This document shows positions 574 through 38,717 of a stretch of DNA of 64,000 nucleotides, piece by piece. The DNA is taken from contig OZ245817.1 in assembly GCA_965228475.1 (NCBI GenBank), positions 960,001 to 1,024,000 of the forward strand, read 5' to 3'. The translations under genes were made by a program, and so were the position numbers. Below the pieces are notes generated by a model that saw only the letters and a program-made list of their open reading frames with translations, searched no databases and was not told where the DNA came from. Source of the DNA: Myxococcota bacterium. GTDB lineage: Bacteria; Myxococcota_A; UBA9160; JAFDDA01. Every line of letters starts with the position of its first letter. The stretch's first letter is position 1.

Positions 574-1436
574 GCGGTGTGAGCGGCGACGTGCGGAGCG
601 CGGTGGAAGCGGAAGTCGAGGGGGCGCCCTACGCCCGGCGCCTCGGCCTCGCGCTCGATGCCGCCCGGCCCGACGGGCTCCGCTTGACCCTCCCGTTCCA
701 GACCGAGAACACGAACCCCGGCGACGTGCTCCACGGCGGGGTGGCGGCCTCGGTCTCCGCGATCGGCGCGCGCGCCGTGGCGCGGAGCGCCTTCGAAAGC
801 GCGACGGCCCCGCTCGGCGTCGGCCAGATCCAGATCGCCTATCTCGCCGCCGCGAAGGGTGAGACGGTCGTGGCGGAGGCGCGTCTCCTGCGTCGCGGGA
901 AGACGCTCTGCTTCGTCTCGGTCACCACGGCGACCGAGGACGGGAAGCCCATCGCCGAAGCGCTCGCCACGGTGGTCCTGCGGCCCGACGCCCCGGCCGA
1001 GCGCGCCTTCCCGGTGGCCGGCGACGACGGTGCGGCGGACCCCGGACCCATGGGGCCCCACGTGGTGAAGACGCCCTTCATGAGCCGGCTCGGCCTGCGC
1101 ATCGAGAACATGCAGGGCGGGCGTTCGCGCATCGTCCTCCCGGCAACGCCGGAGAACGGCGACGCCCAAGGTCGGGTCCACGACGGCGCGCTCCTGGCGC
1201 TGCTCGACACCACGGGCGCCATGGCGTCCTGGGCCGAGACGGGCCCGGGCGCGTACCGGGCTTCGACGCCGAGCCTCCAGGCCCAGATCGTCGCGCCCGT
1301 GCCCCCGGGCGATCTCGTCGCCTATGGCCGGCTCGTGCAGCGCGAGGGCGACTGCTTCTGGGCCGACGTCGAGGTCGCGGGCGGCGGCGGCGAGGGCGTC
1401 GCCCGCGGCACCGTGCTCTATCGGATCGTTCCGTGA
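570..1436 (+). CDS. Double hotdog-fold PaaI-family thioesterase
   Basis: Two copies of the N-x2-G-x2-H-x-G motif (NPGDVLHGG, NGDAQGRVHDG); GTG overlaps upstream stop (GTGA). Confidence 0.85.
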   Translation: MSGVSGDVRSAVEAEVEGAPYARRLGLALDAARPDGLRLTLPFQTENTNPGDVLHGGVAASVSAIGARAVARSAFESATAPLGVGQIQIAYLAAAKGETVVAEARLLRRGKTLCFVSVTTATEDGKPIAEALATVVLRPDAPAERAFPVAGDDGAADPGPMGPHVVKTPFMSRLGLRIENMQGGRSRIVLPATPENGDAQGRVHDGALLALLDTTGAMASWAETGPGAYRASTPSLQAQIVAPVPPGDLVAYGRLVQREGDCFWADVEVAGGGGEGVARGTVLYRIVP

Positions 1437-2062
1437 GCGGGTCTCCCGACCGCGACGAGACGCTCGACGTCGAGCTCGCGCGCATCGGCCGCCGCGTGCG
1501 GCGCTGGCGCGAGGAGCGCGGGCTCACGCTCCAGGAGCTCGCGGCGAAGAGCGGCCTCGCGACGAGCACCGTGCACAAGGTCGAGAGCGTCCAGATGGTG
1601 CCGAGCGTCGCGGTGATCCTGAAGCTCGCCCGGGGGCTCGGCCGCCCGCCCGGCGACCTCGTCCACGACGGCGGCGAGGCGCTCGAGGCGGTGCACCAGC
1701 GCGCGGCGGATCGTCACCCGCTGGGCGTCGAAGGGGCGATGGTGGTCGAGCGGCTCTCGGCGGATCTCTTCGAACCGGCGCTCGAGACCTGGCGCGTGAC
1801 GGTGCACCCCGGCGTTTCCTCCGGCGACGCCATCTCCTACGACGGCGAGGAGCTCGTCGTGATGGAGGAGGGGGTGCTCTCCTTCCGCGTCGGCGAGGCG
1901 ACCCACGAACTCGCCGCGGGCGACACGCTGCACTTCAAGGCCGACGCCCCCCACCGCTGGAAGAACGAGTCCTCGGCGCCGGCGCGTTTCCTGGTGACGG
2001 GCACCCTCGCGCGACGCTTCCGCGAGAGCATGGAGGGCGCCGTCGCGGCGATCGCGCGCTGA
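1433..2062 (+). CDS. XRE-family HTH regulator with cupin domain
   Basis: N-terminal RRWREERGLTLQELAAKSGL HTH; C-terminal cupin GEELVVMEEG...GDTLHF..PHRWKN. Confidence 0.9.
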   Translation: MSGSPDRDETLDVELARIGRRVRRWREERGLTLQELAAKSGLATSTVHKVESVQMVPSVAVILKLARGLGRPPGDLVHDGGEALEAVHQRAADRHPLGVEGAMVVERLSADLFEPALETWRVTVHPGVSSGDAISYDGEELVVMEEGVLSFRVGEATHELAAGDTLHFKADAPHRWKNESSAPARFLVTGTLARRFRESMEGAVAAIAR

Positions 2063-2154
2063 GCGAAGCCCGGACCCGTGGCCCGTCCGGGGCGATGCCG
2101 GCCGGCTGCCGGCTCGCGCGCGGAGCGGACCGGTTTCGAGGTATCCTCTCCGCC

Positions 2155-3915
2155 ATGCCCGGACGCGCCCCGCTCTGCTGGATCGCCCTGCTTGCTGCGC
2201 TGTGGATGGCCCCTCCGGCCGCGGCCCAGGCGGTCGACGATGCGCTCCGGGAGCGGGTCGCCGAAGAAGGCCGCGTGATGGTGATCGTCGAGCTCGAGGA
2301 GCCGACGGTGCCCGAGGGCTGGATCGCCCGCCGCGCGGACCTCGACGGCCAGCGGCGCCGCGTCGCCACCCGCCAGATCGAGGCGATCTACGAGCTCGGC
2401 GGAACGGATGCCGGTCCGGTCCGTCCCTACGCACAGGTTCCGTTCCTCGCGGTGCCGGTCGGCCCCGAGGCCCTCGAGGCGCTCGCGCGCTCGCCGCGCG
2501 TACGCAGCGTTCGCGCATCCCGGGTCTTCGCACCGAGCCTCGCGGAGAGCCTGGAGATCATCCAGGCCGACCAGGCGCAAGCGATCGGGTTCGATGGAAC
2601 CGGGCAGACGGTCGTCGTTCTCGATACGGGGACGGACGGTGGCCATCAGAACTTCCCGCCCGGGAAGTTCGTCGATGAGGCCTGCTTCTCCGACGGCGCG
2701 ACCGCAGGCGGCGCTCCGCAGGGCGGCGGCTTCGGAGACTGTCCGGGGGGTGGCGACACGGCCTTCGGCCCCGCGGCCGCCGTGCCCTGCACCTACGCCG
2801 CTCACTGCTTCCATGGGACCCACGTGGCCGGCATCGCGGTCGGCTCCGGGCCGACCTTGCCCGGCGTGGCGCCCGGCGCAAGTCTGATCCCGATCCAGAT
2901 CGCCTCGGAGTTCCCGGGGTCGCACCCTTCCTGCGGCGGTTCGCCGTGCCCGCTCTCCTGGGAGCACGACACCGACGCGGCGCTTTCCTACGTCTACACG
3001 ACGTTGCGCCACTCCCACACGATCGCGTCGGTGAACCTCAGCCTGGGCGGCGCGGTCTACACTTCGGCCTGCGATGCCGCTTTCCCTGCGAAGAAGGCGA
3101 TCATCGACAACCTGCGCTCGGTCGGGATCGCGACGGTGATCGCGACGGGGAACAACGGTTGCTCCGGGGTCGGGTGTACCGACGCGATCTCCGCACCGAG
3201 CTGCATCTCCTCCGCCGTGAGCGTGAGCGCAACCCGGGACGAAACGGGCAACCCCGCAACCTTCGCCAACCGCGCCCCGTTCATGACGTTCTATGCACCG
3301 GGGCAGTCCATCCTGGCGCCTCAATACCAGACGGTCGATCAGTACCAGAACTCCTCGGGCACCTCGATGGCGGCGCCGCACATCGCTGGCGCCTGGGCCC
3401 TCCTTCAGCAGGCGGTGCCCGGAACGAGCGTCTCGTCCCTGGTGAGCGTTCTCGAGGCGACCGAGACCTACGCCAGCCCTGGCGCTGGCCGCCCGAACCT
3501 GCGCGATGCCCTCGGCCAGCTCGGCTACCCGGAGTGCGACGACGGGATCGACAACGACGGCGACGGCGCCGTCGACACGGCCGACCTCGGCTGCGACGAC
3601 GCGGCCGACCTGTTCGAGCGGTCCGACGCCCTCGCCTGTGACAACGGGCTCGACGACGACGGGGACGGCGAGATCGACCTGGCCGACCCGGGATGCGGAC
3701 ACCCGGGCTCCATCCGCGAAGACCCCGCCTGCGACGACGGGATCGACAACGACGGGGACGGCGGGATCGACTGGGACGGCTCGCCCGCGGACCCCGAGTG
3801 CCTCTCGGGCCACATCACCGCCGAGTCCCCGCCGGGCTGCGGGCTCGGCCCGGAGCTGGTCCTGCTGCTCCCCGCCCTGGCGGCCCGCTTCCGGCGACGG
3901 AAAAACATTTCCTAG
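2155..3915 (+). CDS. Secreted S8 (subtilisin-like) serine peptidase with Ca-binding repeats and C-terminal sorting tail
   Basis: Signal peptide from ATG 2155; triad motifs VVVLDTG, HGTHVAG, GTSMAAP; three CDDGIDNDGDG repeats; GCGLGPEL-hydrophobic-RRRK tail. The ORF-track start at 1324 is over-extended. Confidence 0.9.
   Translation: MPGRAPLCWIALLAALWMAPPAAAQAVDDALRERVAEEGRVMVIVELEEPTVPEGWIARRADLDGQRRRVATRQIEAIYELGGTDAGPVRPYAQVPFLAVPVGPEALEALARSPRVRSVRASRVFAPSLAESLEIIQADQAQAIGFDGTGQTVVVLDTGTDGGHQNFPPGKFVDEACFSDGATAGGAPQGGGFGDCPGGGDTAFGPAAAVPCTYAAHCFHGTHVAGIAVGSGPTLPGVAPGASLIPIQIASEFPGSHPSCGGSPCPLSWEHDTDAALSYVYTTLRHSHTIASVNLSLGGAVYTSACDAAFPAKKAIIDNLRSVGIATVIATGNNGCSGVGCTDAISAPSCISSAVSVSATRDETGNPATFANRAPFMTFYAPGQSILAPQYQTVDQYQNSSGTSMAAPHIAGAWALLQQAVPGTSVSSLVSVLEATETYASPGAGRPNLRDALGQLGYPECDDGIDNDGDGAVDTADLGCDDAADLFERSDALACDNGLDDDGDGEIDLADPGCGHPGSIREDPACDDGIDNDGDGGIDWDGSPADPECLSGHITAESPPGCGLGPELVLLLPALAARFRRRKNIS
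3535..3801 (+). repeat. Three coding repeats C-D-[DN]-G-x-D-[ND]-D-G-D-G-x-x-D
   Basis: Units start at 3535, 3637 and 3730; nucleotide-level near-identity tgcgacgacgggatcgacaacgacgg. Confidence 0.85.
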
Positions 3916-3958
3916 TCTGGGCAGCGGAATGCCTTCACGGGTGCGTGGGGCGGAATCC

Positions 3959-3971
3959 TAACTACCTGAAA
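3959..3971 (-). promoter_or_regulatory. Putative IHF-binding site
   Basis: TTTCAGGTAGTTA is one mismatch from WATCAR-N4-TTR, in an AT-rich patch just upstream of a sigma54 motif. Confidence 0.5.
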
Positions 3972-3996
3972 ACAAAGGGATCTCGCCCTGAGCGGG

Positions 3997-4013
3997 CTGG
4001 CATCCATCTTGCG
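3997..4013 (+). promoter_or_regulatory. Sigma54 (-24/-12) promoter
   Basis: CTGGCATCCATCTTGCG = TGGCA-N6-TTGC with exact GG-N10-GC spacing. Confidence 0.75.
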
Positions 4014-4023
4014 ATGTAATGAG

Positions 4024-4103
4024 GCGTACTCGGGGACCGCGCGCCGAGGCCGCCACCCGCTGGGAAGGGGATCGTGGCCAGAGCGCGCGGTCCCTTCTCT
4101 TTT
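4024..4103 (+). ncRNA. Putative sigma54-dependent hairpin small RNA (RNA-1)
   Basis: Starts about 12 nt after the -12 box; 12-bp stem GGGACCGCGCGC (4033-4044)/GCGCGCGGTCCC (4083-4094); inner stem GGCCGC/GTGGCC with a G-U pair; U-rich tail TTCTCTTTT. Confidence 0.6.
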
Positions 4104-4177
4104 GGCCCCTGGGCCCCTCCGAGAGCTTTATTTGCGTGTTGACGAGGCTTTCTTGCCCGCGGCGTGACACTTCTGCC

Positions 4178-4263
4178 GGGCCGAAGCCACTTCTCTATGA
4201 CAACACAACATCCCCTTCCCAGGGAGGCCCGGATCCGCTTGCGGATTCGGGCCTTTATCTTTT
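4178..4263 (+). ncRNA. Putative small RNA with C-rich seed (RNA-2); 5' end uncertain
   Basis: A/C-rich unstructured stretch ending in ATCCCCTTCCCAG, directly followed by a plus-strand intrinsic terminator; no credible CDS ends here. Confidence 0.5.
4225..4263 (+). terminator. Intrinsic terminator
   Basis: AGGCCCGGATCCG-CTTG-CGGATTCGGGCCT followed by TTATCTTTT; the G-U pair and U tract work only on the + strand. Confidence 0.8.
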
Positions 4264-4297
4264 CTGGGGAGCCTGACTGGCGGGCCTGCGATGCGGC

Positions 4298-5362
4298 TCA
4301 GTTGGCGAGGCCCGGCGCTTCCTCGGCCGCCTCGAGGGCGTCGAGGCGCGTCGTGTCGTCCCAGACCGGGATCTTCGCCTCGGCGAAGCGCTCGCGGCTC
4401 CGCTCCGTGACCGCCCCCACGCGGACGAGGGCCGGCATCATCAGCTCCCGGAAGGAGTGGATCTGTCCCGGCGGGAGCTCGGCCCGCAAACCGGCCGCCC
4501 CCGCTTCGAGGAGGCTCTTCAGGAAGTCCTTGGGCTCGATCCCGACCGTCGCGAGCATCTGCAGGAAGCCCGGGTCCGGCGCCCGCCGCCCCTGGCCCTT
4601 CGGGCCGCCCTGGGCGTCGCTCATGAGCTTCACCGCCTCGAAGGCGAAGTCCGCGATGTCCTCGCGGTCGTCCGCGTGCATCTGGGCGATGGCGTCGCTC
4701 ACGTAGACGTTGCCGAAGGCGACGTGCCGGGATTCGTCCTGGAGGACGTTGTGGGTGATCGTGCGCAGGAGGTCGCACGTCGTCGCCGCGCGCATGTTGT
4801 GGAAGGCGCCGAGGGCGAGCCCCTCGACCACCATGTTCATGCCGATCGCGATCTTCACCCAGTGGTCGGCCTGGAGCGTCACGTCGATCAGCTGCTTCAG
4901 CCAGGGCGAGATCGGGTAGACGACGGCGAGCTTGTTGATGTAGCGCTCGTAGACCTCGACGTGGCGGGCCTCGTCCATGGTCTGGGTCGCGGCGTACAGC
5001 TTGGCCTCGTAGTCCGGGACGGCGTGGGTGAGGGCGGCTGCGGTCATGAGCGCCCCCTGCTCGCCGTGCAGGAACTGCGAGAGCAGGTGGCAGGACATGT
5101 GCGCCGTGAAGGCCTCCCGCTGGGAGGGGGAGAGCGCCTGGATCACCGAGAGCCGGTCGAACAGGAACTGGCTCTCGTCGAGGATCGGCTTCGAGGGGTC
5201 GACCTCGGTGTCCCAGGCGATGTCGCGTGCCGCGTCCCACTGGTGGTTCTTGGCCTTGGTGTAGAGGTTGCGGAGCTTGTCGATGTCGATCGCGTAGTCG
5301 AACTGCCAGCAGACCTCCATCGGGGTCTTCAGGATGTCCGCCGTCTGCCAGTTGGTCGCCAC
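4298..5362 (-). CDS. Ferritin-like diiron protein (AurF/N-oxygenase-like)
   Basis: Diiron ligand motifs GEQGAL, DEARH, VEGLA, DESRH; GGAGG RBS before GTG. Confidence 0.8.
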   Translation of the reverse strand: MATNWQTADILKTPMEVCWQFDYAIDIDKLRNLYTKAKNHQWDAARDIAWDTEVDPSKPILDESQFLFDRLSVIQALSPSQREAFTAHMSCHLLSQFLHGEQGALMTAAALTHAVPDYEAKLYAATQTMDEARHVEVYERYINKLAVVYPISPWLKQLIDVTLQADHWVKIAIGMNMVVEGLALGAFHNMRAATTCDLLRTITHNVLQDESRHVAFGNVYVSDAIAQMHADDREDIADFAFEAVKLMSDAQGGPKGQGRRAPDPGFLQMLATVGIEPKDFLKSLLEAGAAGLRAELPPGQIHSFRELMMPALVRVGAVTERSRERFAEAKIPVWDDTTRLDALEAAEEAPGLAN

Positions 5363-38300: not shown

Positions 38301-38717
38301 ATGCCGGATTTCGAACTCGACGCGCGCCTCGAGGGCGACACGCACTTCGTCGGCGACTGGCCCGTCTGCCGCGTCCTGCTGATGGACGACGCCCGCTTCC
38401 CGTGGCTGATCCTCGTGCCGCGCGTGGCGGGGGCGCGTGAACTCCACGCGCTGCCGAGCGCCGTCCGCGCGGTCGTCTTCGGCGAGATCACCCGGGCCAC
38501 CGCCGCGCTCGAACGCGCGACCGGCGCGGAGAAGATGAACGTCGCGGCGCTCGGCAACATGGTTCCCCAGCTCCACGTCCACGTGATCGCACGCCACGCG
38601 GGCGACGCGGCCTGGCCCGGGCCGGTCTGGGGCGTCGAGGGACGAGAGGCATGGGAAGGGGATGCACGCCGCGCGCTCCTCGAGCGCTTCGAGACCGAAG
38701 CGCAGCGCGAGGGCTGA
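38301..38717 (+). CDS. HIT-family protein
   Basis: KMNVAALGNMVPQLHVHVIAR, DAAWPGPVWG. Confidence 0.92.
   Translation: MPDFELDARLEGDTHFVGDWPVCRVLLMDDARFPWLILVPRVAGARELHALPSAVRAVVFGEITRATAALERATGAEKMNVAALGNMVPQLHVHVIARHAGDAAWPGPVWGVEGREAWEGDARRALLERFETEAQREG

Follow-up and report, generated by a model that had tools for sequence, protein, structure and literature searches.

Why should two short units that code for no protein stand side by side on one strand and carry exactly complementary stretches of 13 nucleotides? This question is raised by an intergenic locus in a window of 64,000 nucleotides (positions 960,001 to 1,024,000 of contig OZ245817.1, assembly GCA_965228475.1), which belongs to the genome of a member of an uncultured, GC-rich order of Myxococcota. 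The first unit, RNA-1, is a predicted transcript with a sigma-54-type promoter and a strong hairpin, while the second, RNA-2, is a predicted small RNA (sRNA). An earlier note on this DNA had read RNA-2 as a base-pairing regulator and RNA-1 as its dedicated decoy or sponge. The sRNA and the sigma-54-type unit of that proposal are borne out here, and the predicted pairing energy is favourable, whereas the dedication of the decoy and the promoter suggested for RNA-2 are not borne out, and the term sponge would still name a presumed function. The two RNAs appear to be one visible part of a wider arrangement that extends through the order, with an unexpected link to the control of PEP-CTERM exoproteins.

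Positions are those of the window unless "genome" is stated, and the source genome (G000) comprises 5,006,157 bases with 70.5% GC. Comparisons were made within an order sample of 193 genomes and an even sample of the phylum, consisting of 64 genomes of the order and 337 from outside it. Closer relatives include a genome of the same genus (G001) and another of the same family (G002).

Exact complementarity between two non-coding units

The anti-seed of RNA-1 and the seed of RNA-2 (Table 1) are the only exact sites of the 13-mer or its complement in the window, and they lie on the same strand. Shuffling the window 100 times gave an expectation of 0.04 matches, and none of the shuffles reached the observed count of three, which includes a site with one mismatch. 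In the whole source genome, the 13-mer is found in two copies of RNA-2 (copy A, in the window, and copy B) and its complement in RNA-1, with no other site. A copy of the anti-seed with one mismatch, ATGGGAAGGGGAT, is located at 38651-38663 within an open frame (38301-38717, forward strand), and is probably a chance match.

The anatomy described in the earlier note also holds. The anti-seed is placed in the apical part of the RNA-1 hairpin, which is strong (-50.7 kcal/mol, z -3.55) and has TTCTCTTTT on its 3' side. An A/C-rich stretch holds the seed, immediately 5' of a terminator with a CUUG loop, after which comes a T-run, and each of the two units has a separate terminator. Neither codes for protein, as reading frames differ between loci: small open reading frames (ORFs) considered in RNA-1 and RNA-2 were rejected on inspection because they are not conserved among loci, and an ATG or GTG in the 5' part of RNA-2 was rejected as a start codon because it is missing in many families.

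RNA-2, a small-RNA family of the order

When the segment 3960-4280 was compared by BLAST with 61 relatives, 39 of them were matched, in every case over the RNA-2 part, and the exact core CCCCTTCCCAGG was present in all 30 of the loci fetched from this search. A 20-base pattern, CCCCTTCCCAGGRAGRCCCG, whose counts are a lower bound given that copy B differs by one base and escapes it, occurs in 118 of the 193 order genomes, with none for the backwards control. In the phylum sample the same pattern is found in 37/64 genomes of the order versus 0/337 of the others. Public genome contigs hold at least 120 stretches with RNA-2 and, among the matches listed, almost all carry the titles of Myxococcota or Deltaproteobacteria bins.

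The alignment of RNA-2 comprises 98 of 130 distinct instances, including some clear non-members that were kept (L035, L036, L062, L083, L090 and L098, among others). The seed region is invariant in it, as is the terminator at its base, and the single-stranded C/U-rich seed is UCCCCUUCCCAG. Since this seed is constant, the covariation test proposed for the two 13-mers cannot work. The terminator stem, in contrast, covaries: it is 12-13 bp long (hairpin extent about 4223-4256 in the terminator scan) and, in its distal part, both-sided changes are seen in 17-45 of the 98 rows for each pair. Rfam, searched with a permissive threshold, gave no family near its gathering score; the best scores were 22.6 bits for AgvB (RF02702), whose gathering score is 56, and 16.3 bits for Pxr (RF01812), whose gathering score is 80. 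RNA-2 is a new small-RNA family, outside Rfam. It has the features of a trans-acting sRNA, namely its own promoter motif, a conserved single-stranded seed, an intrinsic terminator and no coding capacity, and this anatomy, together with its conservation, fits a regulator of the base-pairing type.

In most families, RNA-2 is encoded after a gene for a small secreted protein. Copy B retains this ancestral place, after a secreted-protein gene shared by many families of the order, while copy A is an exception, preceded by an S8 peptidase gene. The 13-nt seed is identical in the two copies and the terminator stem is different. RNA-2 genes also stand in tandem, two to four together, in L056, G168:C10, G175:C3 and G174:C14; in L056 (601-1173) four copies are spaced about 184 nt apart, and the other arrays are spaced wider.

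Predicted control of RNA-2 by an ECF sigma factor

The promoter first suggested for RNA-2 (TTGACG at 4139 and GACACT at 4166) proved to be wrong. The conserved pair consists of TGACAC at 4165-4170 and CCACT at 4187-4191, and a scan of 3700-4600 for the sigma-70 consensus returned zero sites. With a simple pattern, TGACAC followed after 16-17 nt by (C/A)CAC(T/A), the motif is found upstream of 114 of 155 RNA-2 instances, and an A/T-rich stretch lies 5' of the promoter blocks. The relaxed form of the motif has 12 sites in the source genome versus one in the backwards control, and the strict form has eight, versus a mean of 2.4 (maximum 12) in 30 letter-permuted controls. These sites precede both copies of RNA-2, a gene for an extracytoplasmic function (ECF) sigma factor, the genes of three PEP-CTERM proteins and that of one DUF11 surface protein.

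The sigma factor was assigned through the Pfam families Sigma70_r2, r4_2 and ECF. Among 30 of its orthologues from many families, the relaxed motif is located upstream in 20 and the strict motif in 14. Because the motif is common to the upstream regions of RNA-2 and of the sigma factor gene, we infer that this ECF sigma factor, which is probably self-regulated, has RNA-2 in its regulon. In the loci of the orthologues (L221-L250), a conserved GGTGACA and an A/T-rich stretch are found directly 5' of TGACAC-N16/17-CCACT; this element may be a further regulatory site.

RNA-1, a sigma-54-type unit of a small clade

Contrary to RNA-2, RNA-1 is confined to one small clade. Within 350 nt upstream of RNA-2, the 9-mer GGGAAGGGG of the anti-seed was found only in G000 and G001 (159 instances, L001-L150), and in G002 RNA-1 is missing at the equivalent place. 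A covariance model of RNA-1 (R1), run on 151 genomes of the order, likewise scored strongly in just two of them, G000 (72 bits) and G001 (82 bits). A metagenome scan with GGGAAGGGG, a T-run and the RNA-2 core added five further loci (L151-L155), in which the anti-seed, the T-run and the adjoining RNA-2 are present by construction, so that the unbiased comparison of RNA-1 is that of G000 with G001. In this comparison the anti-seed is identical at 12/12 positions, while its flanks are identical at 26/52 and 16/32, that is, at about half of them. Upstream of the RNA-2 promoter, the longest exact intergenic block shared by both genomes is a 15-mer, CCGCTGGGAAGGGGA, which holds the anti-seed. Across all seven loci the consensus hairpin has 24 pairs, four of them with compensatory changes, and the mean pairwise identity is 0.56 and 0.65 in the RNA-1 flanks and lowest, 0.39, in the spacer.

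Several conserved features of the seven loci lie outside the search pattern. TGGC-N7-TTGC is located 20-24 nt upstream of the hairpin in 7/7 loci and, about 100 nt upstream, 7/7 have a GGAAAA-N-TTTTCC palindrome along with another site of the GGAA..TTCC type. An A/T-rich TAACT..TGAAAA stretch, which in the window (3959-3973) may be IHF-like, is likewise present in 7/7. With its GG and GC elements at an offset of 12 bases, the activator-type sites upstream and rpoN encoded in the source genome, RNA-1 has the marks of a sigma-54-dependent unit ending in a terminator, and the control suggested for it in the earlier note remains the predicted one. About 21 strong matches to sigma-54 activators are found in the source genome, none of them encoded inside the window.

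The anti-seed as a predicted leader element of PEP-CTERM genes

The weak matches of the R1 model were either terminators or short hairpins with a G-rich box, and it was through them that short hairpin RNAs starting with GGGAAGGGGAT were found. A search for GGGAAGGGGAT followed after 8-30 nt by TCCCCTT gave eight places in 6/193 genomes and none in the control. Five of their promoters contain GGCAC-N5-TTGC 13-15 nt upstream and three have sigma-70-like boxes; in L169 the sigma-54 elements are one base closer than canonical. These hairpins (L169-L176, from genomes G012, G140, G086, G143, G052 and G057) start with GGGAAGGGGAT and end in (A/G)TCCCCTT and a T-run, with the box paired in cis with a seed-like arm and an inner stem that differs between copies. 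A search of the source genome for hairpins of this type, RNA-3, gave none. In other families, the sigma-54 RNA-3 units are preceded by GTAACTnnnTGA, which resembles the A/T-rich TAACTACCTGAAAAC found ahead of RNA-1.

A broader search, for GGC-N7-TTGC followed after 8-22 nt by the G-box GGGAAGGGGA, gave 80 places in 52 of the 193 order genomes (sums of our own tally), versus four control places. In the phylum sample this combination occurs at 22 places in 15/64 genomes of the order, with two in the control, and at nine places in 9/337 genomes outside it, with four in the control and mostly without GGCAC; it is therefore enriched only in the order that bears RNA-2. The box lies 13-15 nt after TTGC in most leaders. 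At 28 of the first 30 places fetched, with ORF starts set by a heuristic, an ORF follows within 260 nt. Two of these ORFs run off the locus. A simple pattern recognises a PEP-CTERM-like tail at the end of 24 of the 26 complete ones, and one more tail, in L192, was recognised by eye. The two places that lack an ORF include L190, which ends in a terminator. In many leaders a CUUCCC stretch further downstream pairs in cis with the box, and in several genes the G-box is itself the ribosome-binding site.

In the source genome, promoters were filtered for two GGAA-N6-TTCC-like sites placed 18-26 nt apart and 40-170 nt before GGC-N7-TTGC. This filter returned eight promoters, six of them ahead of PEP-CTERM genes, with an exact GGGAAGGGG within 76 nt in four (genome 857099, 4302091, 4199543 and 3009228) and near variants in two. 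As this 9-mer has only 115 occurrences genome-wide on both strands, four exact boxes in eight windows of 76 nt are, by our own estimate, far above chance. A crude genome-wide count of GGGAAGGGG ahead of start codons, superseded by this promoter-anchored analysis, gave five sites that were plausible, and GGGAAGGGG was not clearly enriched relative to related 9-mers. The promoter of RNA-1 fails the tandem-site filter, its second site being degenerate, and has the first site in common with the PEP-CTERM promoters. Another PEP-CTERM sigma-54 leader (genome C1:3241519-3241680, forward strand) holds an attenuator-like hairpin and a T-run before the ribosome-binding site; the latter is a variant of the G-box, and the first codons, UGUUGUC, exactly complement the first 7 nt of RNA-2.

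Judged by these promoters and leaders, the anti-seed is a shared element of the leaders of predicted sigma-54-dependent PEP-CTERM genes, both across the order and in the source genome. Since the G-box is present in PEP-CTERM leaders order-wide, RNA-1 would be one of several bearers of the complement. The proposal of a dedicated decoy thus stands only in part: the complement does lie in a conserved sigma-54-type unit, but it is not specific to RNA-1, being common to many PEP-CTERM leaders.

Predicted pairing

RNA-1 and RNA-2 would form 13 contiguous pairs in the window and 12 in all seven loci, compared to 10-11 nt for the mRNA leaders. The 12-bp seed duplex is predicted at -23.9 kcal/mol, the cost of opening is 5.8-10.4 kcal/mol for the site in RNA-1 and 2.65 for that in RNA-2, and over the seven loci this leaves a net energy of -10.8 to -15.5 kcal/mol. 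The interaction is thus predicted to be favourable, and RNA-1 has the extended complementarity of a sponge or decoy. Folding of whole-RNA duplexes was set aside, as shuffled GC-rich partners give similar energies, and was replaced by this combination of opening energy and seed duplex.

The leaders were compared through the predicted duplexes of the first 29 nt of RNA-2 with 150-nt leaders, against a background of 3000 random genome windows (mean -17.9, 1st percentile -27.4, minimum -33.7). RNA-1 scores -33.9 and four PEP-CTERM leaders score -35.1, -32.0, -29.6 and -27.6, while two leaders of other genes have unremarkable energies. At 857099 and 3241519, RNA-2 covers the ribosome-binding site with its C/U seed, and its 5' GACAACA pairs just past the start codon. 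Because these duplexes span both the ribosome-binding site and the start codon, translational repression is favoured as the outcome of pairing.

Proposed mechanism

In the mechanism proposed here, the ECF sigma factor would drive the transcription of RNA-2, whose C/U-rich seed would pair with the G-box in the leaders or ribosome-binding sites of single-gene sigma-54 PEP-CTERM transcripts. This pairing would most likely block the translation of the exoprotein mRNAs. RNA-1 looks like one of these leaders in its -24/-12 promoter, its A/T-rich spacer and its tandem sites of the GGAA-N6-TTCC type further upstream, yet it is predicted to be gene-less and strongly terminated. Its G-box would be displayed in a hairpin loop, and the unit immediately precedes a duplicated RNA-2 gene. 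The sigma-54 activator that turns on the PEP-CTERM genes would also induce RNA-1 which, in turn, would sequester the RNA-2 made from both copies, lifting the repression of the PEP-CTERM genes.

RNA-2 probably targets the G-box leaders of PEP-CTERM genes, and RNA-1 is likely a decoy for it, since it is leader-like, lacks a gene and has the longest match. The model as a whole, in which RNA-2 represses these leaders and RNA-1 competes for it, draws on the observed sequences, structures, promoters, conservation and co-distribution, and is given about an even chance of being right. Transcription of the two units, their pairing in the cell, the sign of the regulation and the role of the decoy are inferred from these.

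A number of observations weigh against this model. The anti-seed 12-mer is identical in 7/7 loci, with nine of its bases demanded by the search pattern in 5/7. The anti-seed is partly self-paired in its loop, hence the opening cost given above, and cofolding of RNA-1 with RNA-2 yields a gain of only 0 to -3.6 kcal/mol, in a calculation that cannot represent contacts between a loop and a strand. Two of the six PEP-CTERM leaders fall within the background of the leader comparison (4302091 at 0.12 and 2698166 at 0.08). The RNA-2 20-mer is found in 41 of the 52 genomes with a G-box and in 77 of the 141 without it (hand count), a modest difference among genomes that are related and hence not independent, and in one large genus RNA-2 is present while the exact G-box is almost never found. 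A search of the source genome for Hfq gave none. Finally, an RNA library (X1) contains a single contig of 101 nt, at depth 2, that spans 4208-4258 and then continues into unlike sequence; on account of this continuation it derives from a relative, in which it runs past the terminator, and it is uninformative on the transcripts. Three further libraries (X2-X4) consist of near-identical DNA, possibly that from which the window came.

The model can also be extended, tentatively and with less confidence, to an RNA code for the PEP-CTERM/exosortase programme of the whole order. Here a common G-box would be read by one ECF-driven sRNA, and gene-less leaders would repeatedly have turned into decoys, as possibly happened with RNA-1 and the GGGAAGGGGAT hairpins. 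RNA-2 would then either mask ribosome-binding sites or compete with the cis CUUCCC arm of the attenuator-like hairpins.

Alternative explanations

The alternative that survives best, although rather unlikely, is that RNA-1 is an orphan or vestigial PEP-CTERM leader, or an attenuated stub, that inherited its box and is possibly bound by RNA-2, with no selected role as a decoy. The architecture of its promoter is the same as that of the PEP-CTERM genes of the source genome, gene-less units with a G-box appear sporadically elsewhere (L190 and L169-L176), and the limitation of RNA-1 to one small clade would be in line with such an origin. A mere remnant, however, would not be expected to keep its hairpin, promoter and box in seven loci as diverged as their flanks indicate, nor to adjoin the RNA-2 gene in every one of them. 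In addition, the match of RNA-1 is longer than that of the mRNA leaders, and its box has shifted from the 5' end to an exposed loop. These features speak against a mere remnant.

It is improbable that the G-box acts mainly as a binding site for a protein, such as CsrA, or as an element of the DNA or of the initially transcribed region, with RNA-1 and RNA-2 not pairing at all. CsrA is encoded in the source genome and the box contains GGA motifs; its fixed distance from TTGC in most leaders and its cis pairing with downstream CUUCCC in many of them would also suit such a role. The box of RNA-1, however, is found about 50 nt past the promoter and in a loop, and in several genes the box coincides with the ribosome-binding site. 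Furthermore, the invariant seed of RNA-2 is exactly complementary to it, and both are confined to the same order. Protein sponges of the CsrB/RsmZ type carry many hairpin loops with GGA, whereas RNA-1 is a single hairpin.

A third explanation is a single transcript that reads through from RNA-1 into RNA-2, in which the anti-seed would mask the seed, either as a self-inhibited precursor or as a switch between two states. The minimum-energy fold of 4020-4265 does pair both 13-mers (-116.5 kcal/mol, z -3.57), but the centroid fold retains two separate hairpins. During transcription, the RNA-1 hairpin with its T-run would form first, RNA-2 has a conserved promoter of its own between the units, and the spacer is the least conserved segment of the locus, all of which makes this explanation very improbable. 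Lastly, a chance match between two GC-rich hairpin regions is a negligible prospect, for, common as G-rich and C-rich runs are at this GC content, none of the shuffles reached the observed count, and the 13-mer, which the genome holds only in RNA-1 and the RNA-2 copies, is conserved in G001.

Features of the locus

The features discussed in connection with the decoy model are listed in Table 1, together with the genes that flank the locus. The tail of the S8 subtilase upstream gave no Pfam match at E 0.001.

Table 1. Predicted features of the RNA-1/RNA-2 locus and related features elsewhere in the source genome.
Feature	Position	Strand	Remarks
S8 subtilase gene	1324-3915	+	Upstream flank; DNDGDG-type repeats and PEP-CTERM-like tail
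Palindrome GGAAAAACATTTCC	3899-3912	.	Likely enhancer-binding-protein site; in 7/7 loci; overlaps end of S8 gene
Second upstream site GGAATGCCTTCA	3926-3937	.	Degenerate; aligns with GGAA..TTCC in six other loci
A/T-rich stretch TAACTACCTGAAAAC	3959-3973	.	Between upstream sites and promoter; partly conserved in seven loci
Sigma-54-type promoter TGGCATCCATCTTGC	3998-4012	+	-24 GG / -12 GC
RNA-1	~4023-4103	+	Predicted gene-less transcript of ~80 nt; start from promoter, end from terminator
RNA-1 hairpin	4032-4095	+	Serves as terminator; T-run 4095-4103
Anti-seed (G-box) CTGGGAAGGGGAT	4060-4072	+	Apical loop of RNA-1 hairpin
RNA-2 promoter motif	4165-4191	+	Two blocks separated by 16 nt
RNA-2 copy A	~4199-4263	+	Predicted small RNA of ~65 nt; order-wide conservation, covarying terminator
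Seed ATCCCCTTCCCAG	4210-4222	+	Exact reverse complement of CTGGGAAGGGGAT
RNA-2 terminator	4226-4263	+	CUUG-loop hairpin to about 4253-4256; T-run 4254-4263
AurF-like di-iron oxygenase gene	4298-5362	-	Downstream flank
RNA-2 copy B (locus L184)	genome C1:4270886-4270991	-	Seed at 4270932-4270944
ECF sigma factor gene	genome 3095080-3095751		RNA-2-type motif upstream

Significance and comparison with known systems

If the model is correct, a post-transcriptional layer would join an ECF sigma factor and a sigma-54 activator, two alarm systems, at the mRNAs of exoproteins. It would also be a rare case in which the origin of a decoy RNA from the leader of its target can be read in the sequence. RNA-2 itself represents a new small-RNA family with a testable set of targets, in a phylum where few sRNAs have been characterised and in a lineage where Hfq was not found.

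Among the sRNAs under control of sigma factors of this kind, the sigma-E-dependent RybB, MicA and MicL of enterobacteria repress the synthesis of envelope proteins. RNA-2 resembles them as a predicted sRNA driven by an ECF-type sigma factor, with mRNAs of exported proteins as predicted targets. It differs from them in that its promoter is assigned by prediction, from the common motif, its targets would be PEP-CTERM and not outer-membrane proteins, and Hfq was not found. Weak local likenesses exist to AgvB (anti-GcvB), limited to the CA-rich ACAACACAACA and the terminator of RNA-2 (4195-4259, 22.6 bits), and to Pxr, limited to the terminator stem; the resemblance of the 5' part of RNA-2 to AgvB is probably convergent.

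Small RNAs with sigma-54 promoters and activator sites include Qrr and the pair GlmY/GlmZ, of which GlmY acts as a decoy, according to the available text of the accounts (PMC10162802, PMC3045617, PMC7073468). GlmY, however, decoys the protein RapZ and not an sRNA, and no similarity in sequence or structure connects these RNAs with the present ones.

Sigma-54 control of PEP-CTERM genes has been described for PrsK/PrsR/PrsT (Haft et al. 2006, PMC1569441) and for DVUA0057 of Desulfovibrio vulgaris (PMC3333781). The parts of these accounts at hand describe PEP-CTERM operons of one gene, whose leaders are long and which have a -24/-12 motif as well as an activator site upstream, much as is predicted here, and differ from the present case in that they contain neither a G-box in the leader nor a small RNA. 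In the same parts, the control of the PEP-CTERM/exosortase system is described only at the level of sigma-54 transcription, and the portions available of the literature that names both PEP-CTERM and sRNAs draw no link between them. The PrsR model TIGR02915 has a best score of 418.5 bits in the source genome, below its cut-off of 502.6.

The closest case in function, by analogy, would be the sponge RosA and its target RoxS from Bacillus subtilis. The available text of that account (PMC8216469) describes a stand-alone, separately regulated RNA whose G-rich regions bind the C-rich seed regions of the sRNA RoxS. RoxS masks ribosome-binding sites, and its host has no known RNA-hub protein. The two systems have no relation in sequence. 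RosA has two G-boxes and is repressed by CcpA, whereas RNA-1 has one and is predicted to depend on a sigma-54-type promoter. RNA-1 also stands in tandem with the sRNA gene, resembles the leader of a target without its gene, and is known here from sequence alone. What RNA-1 and RNA-2 appear to have in common with RosA/RoxS, as well as with RsaI/RsaE from Staphylococcus, is the principle: a G-rich loop set against a C/U-rich seed, in a genome in which Hfq was not found.

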